The position numbers and the translations under genes were made by a program. From the sequence record PP328843.1: 64,000 nt of DNA, one strand, 5' to 3'. This document shows positions 19,224 to 48,687 of this stretch, one piece after another; the first letter of the stretch is position 1; every line of letters begins with the position of its first letter. The notes below the pieces were generated by a model that made no database searches, had not been told where the DNA came from, and worked only from the letters and a program-made list of their open reading frames with translations. Source of the DNA: Escherichia phage 215Ecol030PP.

Positions 19224-19868
19224 TTAACCTCTATTCATAAAAGCATTAAAAATTTGGTCATCAATAGAAACATTTACTTTAGACTGTTTTTCTGCTGGTA
19301 ATTCGTATCCACACACTACAATTTTTTCATCGATATCAAAATATACAGAAGCAATACGATTAATGTTATTTTCAGTTAAGTCTAAATCAACATCAACATC
19401 TTTTTGATCTACACTTAAAGGATAACTAATGCGGGTTATTTTATTATCTTTAACAAAGAGTCCGCCAACATACTCTGTACTACGTTTGAAGTTTACACGT
19501 TTCCGAATTGAAAGATATGATACATCTTTACCGTGAGCTCGGCTCATAGGACATAATGAATAGCTAGAATAAGAGATGTCAAATCCTACACCTTCAATAT
19601 GAGCCAACGCGTCATGATTAAACCAATTATAATCATATGCCAAATCCATTATATTGTAATATGTGAAAGGCACAGGATTAACATCATATGTTGTACCTTT
19701 AAAATCTGCCCAGGCAACGATTTCGTTATCTTTAACAATTACAAAAATTACACCAATATGATATCCGTTATTATTTTCATTCGGCGTTATATTATAACAT
19801 TGTGCATCAGGAAATTTACCGTATTTAAACGGTGGATTTTTGTGCATATAATAAATCATATTATTCAC
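19224..19868 (-). CDS. hypothetical protein (61.2 position), 214 aa
   Basis: ORF in gene train. Confidence 0.55.
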   Translation of the reverse strand: MNNMIYYMHKNPPFKYGKFPDAQCYNITPNENNNGYHIGVIFVIVKDNEIVAWADFKGTTYDVNPVPFTYYNIMDLAYDYNWFNHDALAHIEGVGFDISYSSYSLCPMSRAHGKDVSYLSIRKRVNFKRSTEYVGGLFVKDNKITRISYPLSVDQKDVDVDLDLTENNINRIASVYFDIDEKIVVCGYELPAEKQSKVNVSIDDQIFNAFMNRG

Positions 19869-20154
19869 CTGTGATTTCGGTTACGATATTTTTGTTATTA
19901 AAGTTTTTATCGCAATACAGAACATAATTATACTGCATTACACCACCAGACTTAAGCTGTTTTTGTACTTCAGCTTTCATTTCAGGACGATCGCGCTCAA
20001 CGATATTCATAATATCCGCTTCAATTTGAGTTTCAACTTCAGTCTGATCCGCAGTCATAGACCATTCACACAAATCTTTATCATAACCTGCCATAGCAGG
20101 CTGAGCAGCACAAGAAGCTAAAGCAAAAATTGTAGCAAAAATAAATTTTTTCAT
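19861..20154 (-). CDS. sp: Spackle periplasmic protein Sp, 97 aa
   Basis: Signal peptide MKKFIFATIFALASCAAQPAMA; size and position match T4 sp. Confidence 0.8.
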   Translation of the reverse strand: MKKFIFATIFALASCAAQPAMAGYDKDLCEWSMTADQTEVETQIEADIMNIVERDRPEMKAEVQKQLKSGGVMQYNYVLYCDKNFNNKNIVTEITGE

Positions 20155-20214
20155 GATAATCTCCTCAGTAGTTTATGTTTATATAGTATCTCAATTTCCA
20201 ACAAAAGTAAATAG

Positions 20215-20472
20215 TTATTTTAAAACTTCTGCATAATCACATGTTACAAACTGTTTCTCTAACTTAACGATCTTACGAAAATATCTTTTGCATTGACGAA
20301 TCTGCCTCTTCGTAGGACGTACAGCAAACTTAATAAATTCCACTCGACCAAATGGAGGACTTTCTTCTGCTGGAATATCTAGCACCAATTCCCATGTATC
20401 TGCAATAAGTGCTTTGAATTGCGTATTTTTCCTGACGTTATATGGAGTAGGTTTAAATAAAACAATATGCAT
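20215..20472 (-). CDS. hypothetical basic protein (61.4 position), 85 aa
   Basis: ORF immediately upstream of dmd; this position is, from memory, where a ToxN-inhibiting factor has been reported in T4 (not verifiable here). Confidence 0.55.
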   Translation of the reverse strand: MHIVLFKPTPYNVRKNTQFKALIADTWELVLDIPAEESPPFGRVEFIKFAVRPTKRQIRQCKRYFRKIVKLEKQFVTCDYAEVLK

Positions 20473-20473
20473 A

Positions 20474-20656
20474 TTATCCTCGGCAATCTACTTCACATAC
20501 TTTCTTGTCATCAATGAAAGCTTTAACTAATGCTTTATTAACTTCAGCATATTGAGTAGTAGCCCATTGAACGTCATCTTTCATCATTGTGATTTCTTTA
20601 GTAAACATGCTTTCATTCTTAAACCACCCCATAAAAACTACCTTTACCAATTCCAT
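20474..20656 (-). CDS. dmd: Dmd, discriminator of mRNA degradation (antitoxin against RnlA/LsoA), 60 aa
   Basis: Sequence MELVKVVFMGWFKNESMFTKEITMMKDDVQWATTQYAEV... recognised as T4 Dmd; SD GAGGAG upstream. Confidence 0.85.
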   Translation of the reverse strand: MELVKVVFMGWFKNESMFTKEITMMKDDVQWATTQYAEVNKALVKAFIDDKKVCEVDCRG

Positions 20657-44408: not shown

Positions 44409-45688
44409 CTATGCATGTTTTACTCGTTTTACCATTTCTTTCATTTTACCTAAATTCCATGGAACAACGCTAGGAGTTCCAAGATATCCGCATGTTCTTC
44501 TTATTGTGTTCATCTTTTTAGGATCAGTTTCTCCACAAATAGAACAAACAAATCCGTTTTCAGTAGGAGTCATTTCATGGGTACTTCCACACGTAAAACA
44601 TTTATCTACTGGCATATTAACACCAAAATAATCTAAATGTTGTGCAGCATAATCCCATACAGCCTCAAGACCTTTTAAGTTATTTTTCATATCAGGAAGT
44701 TCAACATAAGAAATGTGACCACCTGTCGCAATGAAATGATATGGCGCTTCACGAGAAATCTTTTCAAACGGAGTAATATTTTCTTCTACTGAAACATGGA
44801 AACTGTTAGTGTACCAACCTTTATCAGTAACATCCTTTACACTTCCATATTTTTCTGTATCGAGTTTACAGAAGCGATAACAAAGGTTTTCAGCAGGAGT
44901 CGAATATAAACTAAAAGCAAATCCAGTTCTTTCAGTCCACTGTTTAAGACGAGCATTCATTTTAGTTAAAATTTCTCGTCCAATATCACGACCGGCAAGA
45001 ATATTCAATTCGTGAATACCAATGTATCCTAGGGACACTGAACTTCTACCGTTTTTAAATAACTCAATTATGTCGTCATCAGGTTTAAGACGAACCCCGA
45101 ATGCACCTTCTTGGTAAAGAATAGGAGCAACAGTCGCTTTAACTCCTTTTAAGGAACTAATTCTACACATCAAAGCTTCAAAACATAAATCCATTCGCTC
45201 ATTGAATAATTCAGTAAATTTCTGTTCATTGAACTGTGTTCCAATATAAGAATCTAACGCGATGCGAGGAAGATTCAGTGTTACAACACCAAGATTATTA
45301 CGTCCATCAAGAATTTCATTACCAGTCGAATCTTTCCATACGCTCAAGAAACTACGGCAACCCATTGGAGAAACAGGAATAGATGAACCAGTGATAGCTT
45401 TATTGTTCTTAGCTGAAATAATATCAGGATACATCCTTTTGCTTGCACACTCTAGAGCAAGCTGCTTAATATCATAGTTCGGATCGTCTTTATAAAGATT
45501 AACACCTTCTTCAACAAACATAACAAGCTTAGGGAAAATAGGAGTTATCCCATCACGACCGAGACCTTTAATACGATTTTTCAGAATTGCTTTCTGAATC
45601 ATTCGTTCAGTCCAGTCAGTTCCCGTACCAAATGTAATTGTTACAAAAGGAGTCTGTCCGTTTGAACTGAAAAGTGTATTTACTTCAT
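44409..45688 (-). CDS. nrdD: anaerobic ribonucleoside-triphosphate reductase NrdD, exon 2 (C-terminal 426 codons including the split Tyr codon)
   Basis: Glycyl-radical motif RRTCGYLG near C-terminus; proposed splice joins ...QAYE-Y-EVNTLF... and gives 605 aa in total. Confidence 0.85.
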
Positions 45689-45714
45689 CATTATATTCAG
45701 CATGAGTCGCAAAT

Positions 45715-45919
45715 TCATGCTCGTTTATATGAAACAACAAAATTTGGATAGTCCATAGATATGCAACGTTCTTTTATAGTGCTAGGATGAAAATTTAGCG
45801 CTTTAGCTGCTTCTATATAAGACGTATACTTAATACCGTCAACAACCACATATTCAGGAACTTTATGAATAGTAGTCTTTATCTTTTATTTTAGTACAAC
45901 GTCTTTTTATCCATTTCAT
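45715..45919 (-). pseudogene. remnant of intron-encoded homing endonuclease: 18-codon N-terminal stub plus out-of-frame 56-codon C-terminal DNA-binding fragment
   Basis: Late-promoter-like TATAAATA (45949-45956), SD GAGGUGA, ATG at 45917-45919 then MKWIKRRCTKIKDKDYYS-stop; in the +1 frame ...VPEYVVVDGIKYTSYIEAAKALNFHPSTIKERCISMDYPNFVVSYKRA resembles the C-terminal helix-turn-helix tail of GIY-YIG intron endonucleases. Confidence 0.6.
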
Positions 45920-45956: not shown

Positions 45957-46167
45957 CAAGATGACTGCTGCATGTCGCCATGCAGATTAGACTATATCTT
46001 CATCTTTCGATGCCGGCCGTTTCGAATAGCATTAGCTTCTATTCTACACCGCTACATTCATCACGGTTAGTCGTTAGGCATTTAGTTCAAAAGAACATTT
46101 AGCACGGGATTGTCTACTAGAGAGGTTCCCCGTTTAGACCGGTTTTACATGAGCCTGAATTAAATTA

Positions 46168-46705
46168 ACTCATACGCCTGGAATGCATCGTATACATCTT
46201 TTTCTGTTTTAGATTGAGCATAATTCAACGCATCAGCGATTTGCCATTTTTCTGCATCCTCAATATGTTTTGCATAGGTGCGTTTAACATAAGGAGAAAG
46301 TACTTTATCTACATTTGCAAAAGTCGTTCCGCCATATTGATGGGAAGCAACCTGCGCAGTAATTTGTGCCATAATTGCAGTAGCAACGCCAATTGATTTA
46401 GGAGTTTCAATCTGTGCATTACCTAGCTTAAATCCGTTCTCAAGCATTCCTTTTAAATCTACTAAACAGCAATTAGTAAATGGAAGAGCAGGGGAATAAT
46501 CAATATCATGGAAATGGATAATTCCGCTTTCATGCGCTTTCATAATAAAAGACGGGACCATATTTTTGGCAATGTGTTTAGACACAATACCAGCCATAAG
46601 GTCCCGTTGAGTTGGAAAAACACGAGAATCTTTATTAGCATTCTCGTTTAAAAGGTCTTTATTAGTTTTATGAATCAATCCTTCAATTTCTTTTTCAATT
46701 GTCAT
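46168..46705 (-). CDS. nrdD: anaerobic ribonucleoside-triphosphate reductase NrdD, exon 1 (N-terminal 179 codons)
   Basis: ATG at 46703-46705; ORF continues in frame into the intron for only 2 codons before a stop. Confidence 0.85.
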
Positions 46706-47175
46706 TTTAAACTCTTTCTAAGCTGCTTCTTAAATGAAGCTATTAACTGTGTTTTGGTGTCAGATTCATTATATTCAAATCCTCTTTGAAGCATCTCGGC
46801 CATCATTTCCTCTTTTCCTAAACGAGAAAATTCCTTTGATTTATCTCCAACAAAGTTAGGGTGAATATTATTTTGGGTGTAATCGGATTTTAAATAAGTA
46901 AGTAAATTTTCTAACCATTCAAGATAATCAACACCTTGTCCCTTTAAGCCAGAACGATTAAATTTATGCTTCATTTGACCTTCTGCAGCATTGCAGAGAT
47001 TACAAAGCAATCCACGTATCTTTCCTGCTTTTGGTCCATTTAATTCATGGTCATGATCAAGATGATTAGCTTGAACATCAGGATTTAGTTCTCGTTGGCA
47101 AATTAAGCATTTACCGTTTTGTGCATTATAAAATTTCTGTTTTTCTTCTTTGTATAATTTGCCAGTCAATAACAT
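46702..47175 (-). CDS. 49: endonuclease VII (Holliday junction resolvase) gp49, 157 aa
   Basis: Zinc-binding CLICQ...CNLCN and catalytic HLDHDHE region; sequence recognised as T4 endo VII; ATGA overlap with nrdD start. Confidence 0.93.
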   Translation of the reverse strand: MLLTGKLYKEEKQKFYNAQNGKCLICQRELNPDVQANHLDHDHELNGPKAGKIRGLLCNLCNAAEGQMKHKFNRSGLKGQGVDYLEWLENLLTYLKSDYTQNNIHPNFVGDKSKEFSRLGKEEMMAEMLQRGFEYNESDTKTQLIASFKKQLRKSLK

Positions 47176-47217
47176 AATAAAACCCTTACCTTAAATAGAT
47201 AAGGGTATTTATTATTT

Positions 47218-47394
47218 TTAAGTATTGTAAAACATTCGATGCAATCGTTTATACTGTCGAATCATCTTTTTAGTAGGACGAGAATAGGTTCCTACGCAAG
47301 TGGTCATATGAGGGTCCGTAGAATGTCCTTTAATAAAAAGTTTCCAAACCTTACCGCCATTTAACTTTTCAGTATAAACCAATTCGGTTTTCAT
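47218..47394 (-). CDS. small protein, 58 aa, whose C-terminal 14 aa duplicate the C-terminus of the adjacent Pin-like gene (not in ORF track)
   Basis: Own translation MKTELVYTEKLNGGKVWKLFIKGHSTDPHMTTCVGTYSRPTKKMIRQYKRLHRMFYNT; 3' end lies in a 43-bp direct repeat. Confidence 0.45.
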   Translation of the reverse strand: MKTELVYTEKLNGGKVWKLFIKGHSTDPHMTTCVGTYSRPTKKMIRQYKRLHRMFYNT

Positions 47395-47430
47395 TAAAAT
47401 GCCTTGTCAGAAAAAGAATTTTGAGTTTTT

Positions 47431-47916
47431 TCAAGTATTGTAAAACATTTGATGCAATCGCTTATATTGCCGAATCTTTTGGTCAGAAAAAGAAATTTGA
47501 TTTTCAAGCCATTCAATGTATTCTGCGGCAGCTTGCATCAGGTTACCTTCATAGCCATCGTTATTTTCTTGTGCAGCTAATTTAGCTAATGCGTATGAAA
47601 TACGTTCACCTTGAAAATCGGCTTTAGGCTTCTGAACAACTTGATTAGTTTGCTCTACAACTTCTTCAATTTCGCCATTTTCTACTGATTCAGTATTCCA
47701 CAAACACCAATACGTAATTGGTTTATCGTAGATGTTAATAATCTTTCCATCAGAAAGTTCAATTTCAATAATTCCAGTATCAGGTTCTATATCATCTTCA
47801 CATTCTTTTGCAAGTTCACGAACTTTAAAGACAGTACCTGCACTAAGTTCCGGCCAGTAATTACATAGCCCTGTATCAGCACGATTAATTCTAAACCACT
47901 TATCTACTGTAATCAT
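47431..47916 (-). CDS. PinA-like protein (inhibitor of host Lon protease, by position and size), about 161 aa
   Basis: ATG at 47914-47916; size matches recalled T4 pin; no diagnostic motif. Confidence 0.55.
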   Translation of the reverse strand: MITVDKWFRINRADTGLCNYWPELSAGTVFKVRELAKECEDDIEPDTGIIEIELSDGKIINIYDKPITYWCLWNTESVENGEIEEVVEQTNQVVQKPKADFQGERISYALAKLAAQENNDGYEGNLMQAAAEYIEWLENQISFSDQKIRQYKRLHQMFYNT

Positions 47917-48038
47917 GTCCCATCTCCACATCAATTAAGTCATTTATCGTTGGTTCATTATATACTGTTTCTTCATCAGTGTAAACCGGTTCTTCCGGCT
48001 CTGGCTCTACAGTTTCCCATCTAGCCGCCCACCAAGGT

Positions 48039-48233
48039 TTAACCCCGAAGCTTATTAAGTTCTTCATAACCAATCCAGGATTCTAATCCTGATGGCAGGT
48101 CACATTCAATTTCCCAAAGAAGTTCTTCAATTTTATGAAGACGATCTAATTCTTCAGCTGGAATAGTAACCATTGATGGAGTTCTTGATACACTAATATC
48201 GTAAATCATATTTACCCCAGTTTGACCATGCAA
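48039..48233 (-). CDS. hypothetical protein, 64 aa
   Basis: ORF in gene train. Confidence 0.5.
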   Translation of the reverse strand: MHGQTGVNMIYDISVSRTPSMVTIPAEELDRLHKIEELLWEIECDLPSGLESWIGYEELNKLRG

Positions 48234-48427
48234 TCACCGTATTTCCACTTAGAAATAGACTTTTCACCATTAGAATAATAAACTTCGAGTTTAGCACGAT
48301 TATTTTTAATTTGAATAACCTTGGCTGTCATCAAAGTTCCATACCCATAGTAAACTGCAACTTCATCACCTACATATACCGCGCTTCCGCGGTAATCATG
48401 GATATAATCAGTTCCTTCGAGAATCAT
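48212..48427 (-). CDS. hypothetical protein, 71 aa
   Basis: ORF in gene train. Confidence 0.5.
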   Translation of the reverse strand: MILEGTDYIHDYRGSAVYVGDEVAVYYGYGTLMTAKVIQIKNNRAKLEVYYSNGEKSISKWKYGDCMVKLG

Positions 48428-48687
48428 TTAAAGTATTCCCGCAATTGGTCAAATCCACCAATATGACTTCCATCAGGAGCAAATACCTGAGGCATCGTCA
48501 ATCCGATTTGAGTATCACGACCTAGTTTAGTCAGAAGCTCAGCAATTTTCTCATCATCAAAAACACCTTTTTCCGGCATAATGTTGATAAATTCAAACGG
48601 CTGTTTCTTCACAGTCAAAAGACGTTTTGCATTATCACAATACACACATTTATGAATGTTGCTATCATAACCATATACTTTAAACAT
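48424..48687 (-). CDS. nrdC: thioredoxin/glutaredoxin NrdC, 87 aa
   Basis: Active-site CVYC; sequence recognised as T4 thioredoxin. Confidence 0.88.
   Translation of the reverse strand: MFKVYGYDSNIHKCVYCDNAKRLLTVKKQPFEFINIMPEKGVFDDEKIAELLTKLGRDTQIGLTMPQVFAPDGSHIGGFDQLREYFK

Follow-up and report, generated by a model that had tools for sequence, protein, structure and literature searches.

The window analysed here is the whole 64,000-nucleotide (nt) stretch of Escherichia phage 215Ecol030PP (PP328843.1). It contains a direct repeat shared by two adjacent minus-strand genes: pin, which encodes the inhibitor of the host Lon protease (PinA), and a downstream open reading frame (ORF) of 58 amino acids (aa), here called ORF58, which is a short member of the TifA family. 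We consider the repeat to be the footprint of a fusion between pin and ORF58, after which the donor gene was kept or re-acquired, and we give this three-step account a probability of about 0.8. On the family comparisons presented below, the last 15 residues of Pin are native to the 58-aa gene, where they make up most of a TifA-type basic C-terminal RNA-binding helix, and were captured by pin. The 161-aa PinA of the reference phage T4 is hence a natural chimera that carries the last 15 codons of its neighbor.

The repeat and the owner of the shared tail

The window is a segment of a Tequatrovirus (T4-like) genome. Over the interval 46700–48000, it matches Escherichia phage D5505 at 99.4% identity, and 505 phage records have a coverage of at least 80% for this interval. 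The genes of the minus strand are, in order, nrdC (48424–48687), three small ORFs, pin (47431–47916), ORF58 (47218–47394), gene 49 and nrdD. A repeat search of the window detects a repeat family, D1, at 47201–47263 and 47414–47476 (63 nt, 83% identical, spacing 213). Its 43-nt core occupies 47221–47263 (copy A) and 47434–47476 (copy B), and 39 of the 43 positions match. In a scan of the whole window, this is the sole 43-mer pair with at least 39 matches. None of 20 Markov-1 shuffles contains a pair of such quality, and the analytic expectation is 1.2e-8. The sequence-only reading had reported this 43-bp repeat and placed its copies at the 3' ends of the adjacent minus-strand ORFs for the 161-aa Pin and the 58-aa protein; the scan and the ORF coordinates agree with it on both points.

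The core copies encode the last 14 codons of each gene. Copy A, the native one, corresponds to the last base of codon 44 and codons 45–58 of ORF58 (IRQYKRLHRMFYNT), and copy B, the captured one, to the last base of codon 147 and codons 148–161 of pin (IRQYKRLHQMFYNT). Before their stops, ORF58 ends with KKMIRQYKRLHRMFYNT and Pin with QKIRQYKRLHQMFYNT, and the tail common to both proteins is IRQYKRLHxMFYNT. A second, shorter repeat, D3 (47406–47428 and 47482–47504; 21 of 23 nucleotides identical), is part of the same structure. The stretch directly after the pin stop repeats pin codons about 138–145 (ENQISFSD), which are encoded by the D3 copy at 47482–47504. The other D3 copy lies in the 36 nt between pin and ORF58 (47395–47430, minus strand), now non-coding, which we regard as a relic of an older pin 3' end; the copy inside pin is its live counterpart.

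Profile matches divide Pin just before the tail. The Pfam family of PinA (Inhibitor_I24, PF10465) matches Pin residues 4–141 with 164.5 bits against a cut-off of 27, and phrog_2167 matches residues 1–146 on its 146-position profile. Both profiles end before residue 147, which leaves the 15-residue tail outside the PinA family core, and residues 147–161 match instead phrog_3272, the family of ORF58. In ORF58, Pfam DUF7279 (PF23945) covers residues 7–56, corresponding to positions 1–53 of its 53-position profile (62.7 bits against a cut-off of 24.5, E = 3e-17), and this domain is present in all ten database homologues of ORF58. Homologues of ORF58 at 57–60% identity retain the tail. Natural Pins of 148 aa and of 136–144 aa are without it, and Pins at 40–50% identity end with KSF, RGF or RRLS and have no tail. 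The tail motif is also seen in TifA, a paralogue in the same window (RPTKRQIRQCKR), and in RB69ORF087c and RB69ORF089c. At the position of the Arg of ORF58 proteins (HRx), every fused Pin has a derived Gln (HQM), and this shared derived residue points to a single origin of the Tequatrovirus fusion.

ORF58 shows the ratio of nonsynonymous to synonymous substitution rates (dN/dS) expected of a maintained gene: 0.16–0.30 in all 10 pairs among the window, SholemSchwarzbard, VR5, RB69 and a Salmonella Dhakavirus, which represent three genera. For the more divergent pairs, dN/dS of the tail is 0.11–0.19. These ratios mark ORF58 as a real conserved gene under purifying selection and not a by-product.

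The sequence-only reading assumed the opposite direction of transfer, in which Pin would have been the source of the C-terminal module and a short neighboring ORF, possibly untranslated, would have received a duplicate of it. It is true that the two ORFs share just their last 15 residues and that Pin is the larger, named protein. However, the DUF7279 profile includes the module, and neither PinA profile extends to it. Distant Pins do not have the module, TifA, RB69ORF087c and RB69ORF089c do, and the purifying selection on ORF58 is strongest in the tail. The module is better described as the native helix of ORF58, and a transfer from Pin to ORF58 is very improbable. The more general proposal of a partial gene duplication or recombination scar holds in part: there is a scar beside a genuine pin, and single-copy alleles exist (T4, T2, and T6), but the direction and the identity of the 58-aa ORF had been missed.

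Arrangements and history of the locus

Comparison with related phages, suggested by the sequence-only reading, reveals three natural arrangements of the locus. The side-by-side alignment includes five phages of the window type (the window, D5505, RB32, PM108, and BCPEco001), four with the fused gene only (T4, T2, T6, and GADU22), and SholemSchwarzbard with the older type. In the T4 type, as in T4 and T2, the 58-aa ORF is missing and pin is 41 bp upstream of gene 49. In the older type, pin of SholemSchwarzbard encodes 148 aa ending with SFSDRAF, and its stop codon overlaps the ATG of the 58-aa ORF (TAATG). The same TAATG overlap is seen in VR5 (Dhakavirus). RB69 (Mosigvirus) has the gene order of the older type; its tail-less Pin ends with RRLS and the small ORF begins 9 nt downstream. 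In the window type, the 161-aa pin is followed by the 36 nt and then by the 58-aa ORF. The downstream edge of the variable slot is a conserved hairpin (47182–47206, minus strand), identical in all three arrangements. It lies just upstream of gene 49 (46702–47175, minus strand; endonuclease VII, 157 aa), the downstream neighbor of the slot, includes the Shine-Dalgarno sequence of this gene, and is annotated as a terminator in D5505.

The distance from an anchor in pin to the hairpin is 95 nt in the T4 type, 232 nt in the older type and 308 nt in the window type, and the differences are exactly 137, 213 and 76 nt. T4, T2, and T6 have a single repeat copy and lack exactly the 213 bp between the copies. 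The T4 sequence GACCGA/ATGATT (slashes mark junctions) corresponds to the older-type sequence GACCGA(GCGTTTTA ATG...AAG)ATGATT without the 137 nt in parentheses. These 137 nt are the last 8 nt of pin and codons 1–43 of ORF58. The frames of the two genes are offset by 2, so that the 137-bp deletion is in frame and joins pin codon 146 to ORF58 codon 44. The 36-nt relic in the window type, read in its own frame, gives TQNSFSDKAF followed by TAA, which overlaps the ATG of ORF58 with the TAATG intact; a 40-aa ORF at 47394–47516 ends with EKTQNSFSDKAF in this frame. The relic also contains the AAGG that serves ORF58 as a ribosome-binding site, 7 nt upstream of its ATG. It varies allelically among window-type phages (AAGGCA vs AGGACA).

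The frequency of the arrangements was obtained by BLAST with 47-nt junction-centered queries against 50,697 phage records, with fixed thresholds and with duplicate RefSeq/GenBank records counted. The search detects the window junction in 113 records, RB32, D5505, and PM108 among them. The junction between pin and the tail is found in 365 records, hence about 250 are of the T4 type, and the tail is intact in all 365. The older junction is found at an identity of at least 90% in 68 records (Tequatrovirus); the 116 matches in the 80–90% identity band of this search are the window-type relic. The Pins of these roughly 68 records, of VR5 and of RB69 are tail-less, and in most cases the stop of pin overlaps the start of the small ORF. 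The presence of the window junction in 113 records shows the window arrangement to be an allele common in nature. Mis-assembly, one of the two outcomes that the sequence-only reading had named as refuting it, is thereby excluded. A repeat collapsed or mis-joined during assembly has nothing for it except the general possibility that comes with short repeats, and it is set against 113 independently sequenced genomes with the same junction and against the allelic variation of the relic; its probability is negligible. Two apparent further variants were rejected. H46 and H47, which seemed to be longer by about 43 nt, are ordinary window-type loci whose extra span comes from the joining of BLAST pieces. 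P0008, whose 43-aa ORF58 ending at the module boundary could have been a reciprocal product, shows a one-base loss in an A-run on a low-coverage contig, and its pin is also frameshifted.

It can be proposed that the window arrangement arose in three steps. In the ancestral state, reconstructed by comparison, a pin of about 146–148 aa ending with SFSD(R/K)AF was followed by the 58-aa TifA/DUF7279 gene, with the overlapping TAATG still seen in Tequatrovirus and Dhakavirus and with the 9-nt gap in RB69. The 137-bp deletion removed the last two codons and the stop of pin together with codons 1–43 of ORF58, generating the 161-aa PinA seen in T4, T2, and T6. Finally, an illegitimate join in an A-run (CTTGAAAA/AACTC) would have placed the fused pin, through its TGA, before an older-type segment that begins in the old pin 3' end and extends through the intact ORF58. 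This would give the order of 161-aa pin, 36-nt relic and ORF58, and such a join results in the tail of ORF58 being present twice, 213 bp apart. The partners of the third step would be a fused genome and an older-type genome, whose exchange restored the intact ORF58; the order of these events is inferred. The join of fused pin and relic in the A-run reads ACTTGAAAA/AACTCAAAA. The heptamer CTTGAAA is seen both at the tail end (ACT TGA AAA) and within pin (CTT GAA ACT).

Some observations weigh against this account. The junction has three A's beyond those expected from a simple in-register crossover at CTTGAAA. Moreover, the second and third steps could have occurred in the other order, with the window type first and the T4 type derived. 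A 213-bp tandem duplication, from the end of pin through ORF58, would then have been followed by the 137-bp deletion in the first copy, generating the window type, and the T4 type would have appeared later, possibly repeatedly, by homologous deletion. T4-type loci with the exact pin allele of the window exist, and T6 is 100% identical over 47428–47485. The fusion junction is at least 99% identical in 273 records, compared with 113 window-type records. GADU22 resembles a chimera of copy B and copy A, and T4 readily recombines at short repeats (PMC9391042). On the other hand, this order needs three events instead of two, and no full tandem duplication (148-aa pin, ORF58, relic, ORF58) is present in any locus examined. 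The most pristine junction, CGA/ATG, is in T4 and T2, both of the T4 type, and the window-type alleles examined are all derived (CAA ATG or CAA AAG); the pristine junction in T4 and T2 favors the fusion-first order. We regard the reversed order as possible and clearly the less probable of the two.

Insertion by a homing endonuclease gene finds no support, as the 213-bp segment encodes only ORF58 and has no matches to HNH or GIY-YIG. T4-type phages also carry PeSL, promoter-plus-stem-loop cassettes, in which an early promoter and a stem-loop flank a shuffled ORF. The repeat is not such a cassette: it is coding sequence, there is no sigma-70-like promoter in or beside either copy, and the sole hairpin (47182–47206) follows copy A alone.

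Homologous exchange between the two copies would delete 213 bp and turn the window type into the T4 type. The T4-type locus of GADU22 resembles copy B in its tail as far as CATCAAATG, after which come the TAA stop and the TTTT run of the copy A flank. In BCPEco001, copy A has the CAA of copy B. Both phages fit exchange between the copies, at one or two sites each. Against this, the signal in GADU22, a single phage, consists of two linked markers, and the mosaic flanks of its locus show no greater closeness to those of window-type phages. The repeat-driven deletion that the sequence-only reading expected is plausible, because T4 recombines at short homologies (PMC9391042), and so far weakly supported.

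ORF58, the Pin tail and further fusions

A profile built from the ORF58 homologues detects one further member in the window, an 85-aa ORF at 20215–20472 on the minus strand. It matches DUF7279 with 72.5 bits (E = 2.6e-20) and is annotated as orf 61.4 in T4 records. Gene 61.4 was renamed tifA, and its product is a protein that inhibits ToxN, a type III toxin (PMC9391042). The published model of TifA, a prediction, has a three-stranded sheet and a C-terminal basic helix with a conserved Pro-Thr cap, and the substitutions P53A T54A or K55A R56A R59A abolish both RNA binding and ToxN neutralization (PMC10853763). A protruding loop of about 20 residues is predicted to contact ToxN and is not conserved in the wider family (PMC10853763). 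The AlphaFold2 (AF2) model of ORF58 contains strands at 2–9, 15–22, and 31–36 and a helix at 42–55 capped by Pro40-Thr41, with a mean predicted local distance difference test score (pLDDT) of 86.5. Among 11 aligned sequences including TifA, R39, P40, T41, and K42 are invariant and K43, R46, K49, and R50 are basic. In BLASTP, residues 39–53 of ORF58 align with residues 52–66 of TifA, and the motif corresponds residue for residue (RPTKKMIRQYKRLHR vs RPTKRQIRQCKRYFR). Only about 8 residues (23–30) lie between strands 2 and 3 of the ORF58 model, and the alignment has gaps opposite the extra segments of TifA; the ToxN-contact loop of about 20 residues is absent. ORF58 is not adjacent to dmd either, lying between pin and gene 49, and the dmd-adjacent copy is the separate gene at 20215–20472.

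ORF58 is thus a compact paralogue of TifA. From homology, it probably binds RNA and is a candidate for inhibiting a ribonuclease (RNase) toxin of the host, co-expressed with the Lon inhibitor. Several points weigh against this proposed function. Homology is the sole ground for the function, and the BLASTP likeness to TifA is limited to 15 residues. None of the ten TifA homologues tested previously is of the 58-aa short type (Table S2 of PMC10853763), and the six distant homologues among them neutralized no toxin tried (PMC10853763). The loop between strands 2 and 3, the region proposed for ToxN specificity, is much shorter in ORF58. A Foldseek search of the PDB with the ORF58 model returned no significant match (best E = 0.29); several of its weak matches are double-stranded RNA-binding domains, a mere lead, which fits the RNA binding of TifA. 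PADLOC gave no match for ORF58, TifA, Pin or a 56-aa neighbor described below, and a literature search on DUF7279 and the ORF names found nothing.

The captured tail of Pin starts at Met44 of ORF58. It includes neither the Pro-Thr cap nor Lys42 and Lys43, the equivalents of K55 and R56 of TifA, and it retains Arg46, Lys49, and Arg50. Positions invariant in the family have drifted in Pin tails: R53 is changed to Q in all, R46 to Q in T4, and H52 to N in the P0016 cluster. In the AF2 model of Pin, the tail is a low-confidence continuation of the last helix (pLDDT about 50–56), and a sequence search of the PDB with Pin found no match. Since the cap and the first two basic residues needed by TifA are absent and family-invariant residues are lost, the Pin tail is most likely a tolerated remnant.

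Fusions of the same two families are also seen outside Tequatrovirus. On L010, a single Mosigvirus-like metagenomic contig (P0038), Pin ends with LERR/FHRDFYNVY. Here, an RB69-type pin was joined independently, at a shared ACGTTT, to the final 9 codons of an RB69-type small ORF. On L012 and L013 (1501–2076 in each; two samples; P0037), a DUF7279 paralogue upstream of pin (MQVKLLYR...RPTKRQLRKAKR...) no longer has its stop and reads in frame into pin, giving a 191-aa two-domain product; the same paralogue retains its stop on L010 (TGATATG). The downstream ORF is wholly lost on L012. RB69ORF089c, a 38-aa ORF upstream of RB69 pin (L006 2141–2257), matches the C-terminal two-thirds of DUF7279 (E = 2.6e-10), and RB69 pin is thus flanked on both sides by TifA-family sequences. 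In distant T4-like contigs, an unrelated 94-aa ORF fills the slot between pin and gene 49 (L018 1646–1930), or the slot is empty (L020 1630–1663); the 94-aa ORF had been considered as a DUF7279 member and was rejected. These arrangements show the slot to be unstable and a general hotspot of accessory-gene turnover.

The fusions might instead be adaptive, if Pin and the TifA-like protein cooperate and the captured helix adds RNA or toxin binding or improves Lon targeting. In three genera, pin and the small gene are neighbors, and in Tequatrovirus and Dhakavirus the TAATG overlap couples their translation. Three separate fusions of the two families are seen (the T4-type tail, the tail in P0038/L010, and the N-terminal fusion in P0037, L012/L013), the tail is intact in 365 of 365 fused records, and both proteins plausibly counter toxin-antitoxin (TA) defense. 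Against this reading stand the features of the tail described above, namely the missing Pro-Thr cap and K42/K43 equivalents that are essential in TifA, the lost invariant residues (R53Q in all, R46Q in T4, H52N in P0016) and the low pLDDT. A Pin without the tail persists in about 68 Tequatrovirus records and in RB69, two partial deletions would both be in frame by chance in about 1 case of 9, which is not improbable, and L010 is a single metagenomic contig. We consider an adaptive fusion unlikely. It can further be speculated that Pin and the mini-TifA form a two-part anti-TA counter-defense, in which the Lon inhibitor stabilizes antitoxins and the RNA-binding protein neutralizes the RNase toxin, and that the recurrent fusions reflect a physical or functional partnership. 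This idea is a long shot, slightly less probable still; if it were true, the T4 PinA used in biochemical studies would contain a functional part of its partner.

A further observation concerns the Pin body. Tequatrovirus and RB69-type Pins, otherwise about 50% identical, have the same amino acids throughout the block QENNDGYEGNLMQAAAEYIE at Pin residues about 113–135 (about 47520–47580, minus strand). The DNA of this block is about 90% identical as judged by eye, and Pins at only 42% identity still show hardly any variation in it. The block could be a functional core that perhaps contacts Lon, or it could be a hotspot of recombination, lying just upstream of the rearrangement breakpoints.

Neighboring genes, significance and comparison with known systems

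Upstream of pin, a 56-aa protein at 48039–48209 (minus strand) matches phrog_3402 ("antitoxin from a toxin-antitoxin system", E = 3.5e-39), and the Pfam family of the RecBCD inhibitor gp5.9 of T7 is just below threshold for it (22.5 vs 24.5 bits). Its presence beside pin and the TifA-like ORF suggests a second counter-defense gene cluster. The published anti-TA island of T4 is present at 19224–20656 on the minus strand, where only tifA was checked against annotation. Beside tifA, a 60-aa ORF (20474–20656) is at the position of dmd. By position, a 97-aa signal-peptide protein (19861–20154) corresponds to 61.3 and a 214-aa protein (19224–19868) to 61.2/adfA. Downstream of gene 49, nrdD is split into exons at 44409–45740 and 46160–46705, and a group I intron is detected at 45968–46203 on the minus strand (Rfam RF00028, 70.9 bits). 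The nrdD intron region here has only a 44-aa ORF (45715–45849), whereas a 258-aa homing endonuclease is annotated in the T4 nrdD intron; the endonuclease gene appears to have been lost or degraded.

The type of event proposed for the pin locus is ordinary for T-even phages. Its consequences concern PinA first, as T4 PinA is the reference Lon inhibitor in biochemistry; its last 15 residues are foreign and tail-less natural forms exist. In mapping the Lon-binding surface, residues 147–161 should be ignored or tested separately. A third or more of T4-like coliphages have a second, shorter TifA-family member wired to the Lon inhibitor, and this short paralogue is a concrete candidate for a new counter-defense specificity. 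The locus also offers a clean natural example, in three states, of the loss, fusion and recovery of accessory genes via very short homologies in T-even phages.

Compared with T4 PinA, the pin product of the window is a full-length orthologue of the same 161 aa with few differing positions, and the order nrdC ... 49.1, pin, 49 is the same. There is no difference at the protein level; what is new is that residues 147–161 are read as foreign to the family. The similarity of the small ORF to pin had been recorded before. RB32ORF078c and RB69ORF087c are orthologues of ORF58, and the RB32 record notes "similar to RB69ORF087c, JS98orf087clike, pin"; these annotations record the similarity but say neither how nor in which direction it arose, and they make no connection to TifA.

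TifA (gp61.4 of T4) and ORF58 share Pfam DUF7279, a predicted three-stranded sheet with a C-terminal basic helix, and the Arg-Pro-Thr-Lys helix cap with its basic cluster (RPTKKMIRQYKR in ORF58 vs RPTKRQIRQCKR in TifA). Both are small early-region accessory genes of T-even phages. ORF58 differs in its length of 58 aa, compared with 85 aa in TifA, in having no C-terminal extension, and in being located next to pin instead of dmd. Only about a third of Tequatrovirus genomes have ORF58.

The closest parallel to the rearrangement itself is given by the deletions and amplifications of T4 at short repeats, namely the dmd-tifA amplifications and compensating deletions (PMC9391042). In both cases, the breakpoints are at short A/T-rich microhomologies, here the A-run at CTTGAAAA and the ACGTTT of the Mosigvirus-like fusion, direct repeats are left, and accessory genes become polymorphic for presence and absence. 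The dmd-tifA events were selected in the laboratory, whereas the pin-ORF58 alleles are natural and fixed, and one in-frame chimera among them became the reference form.

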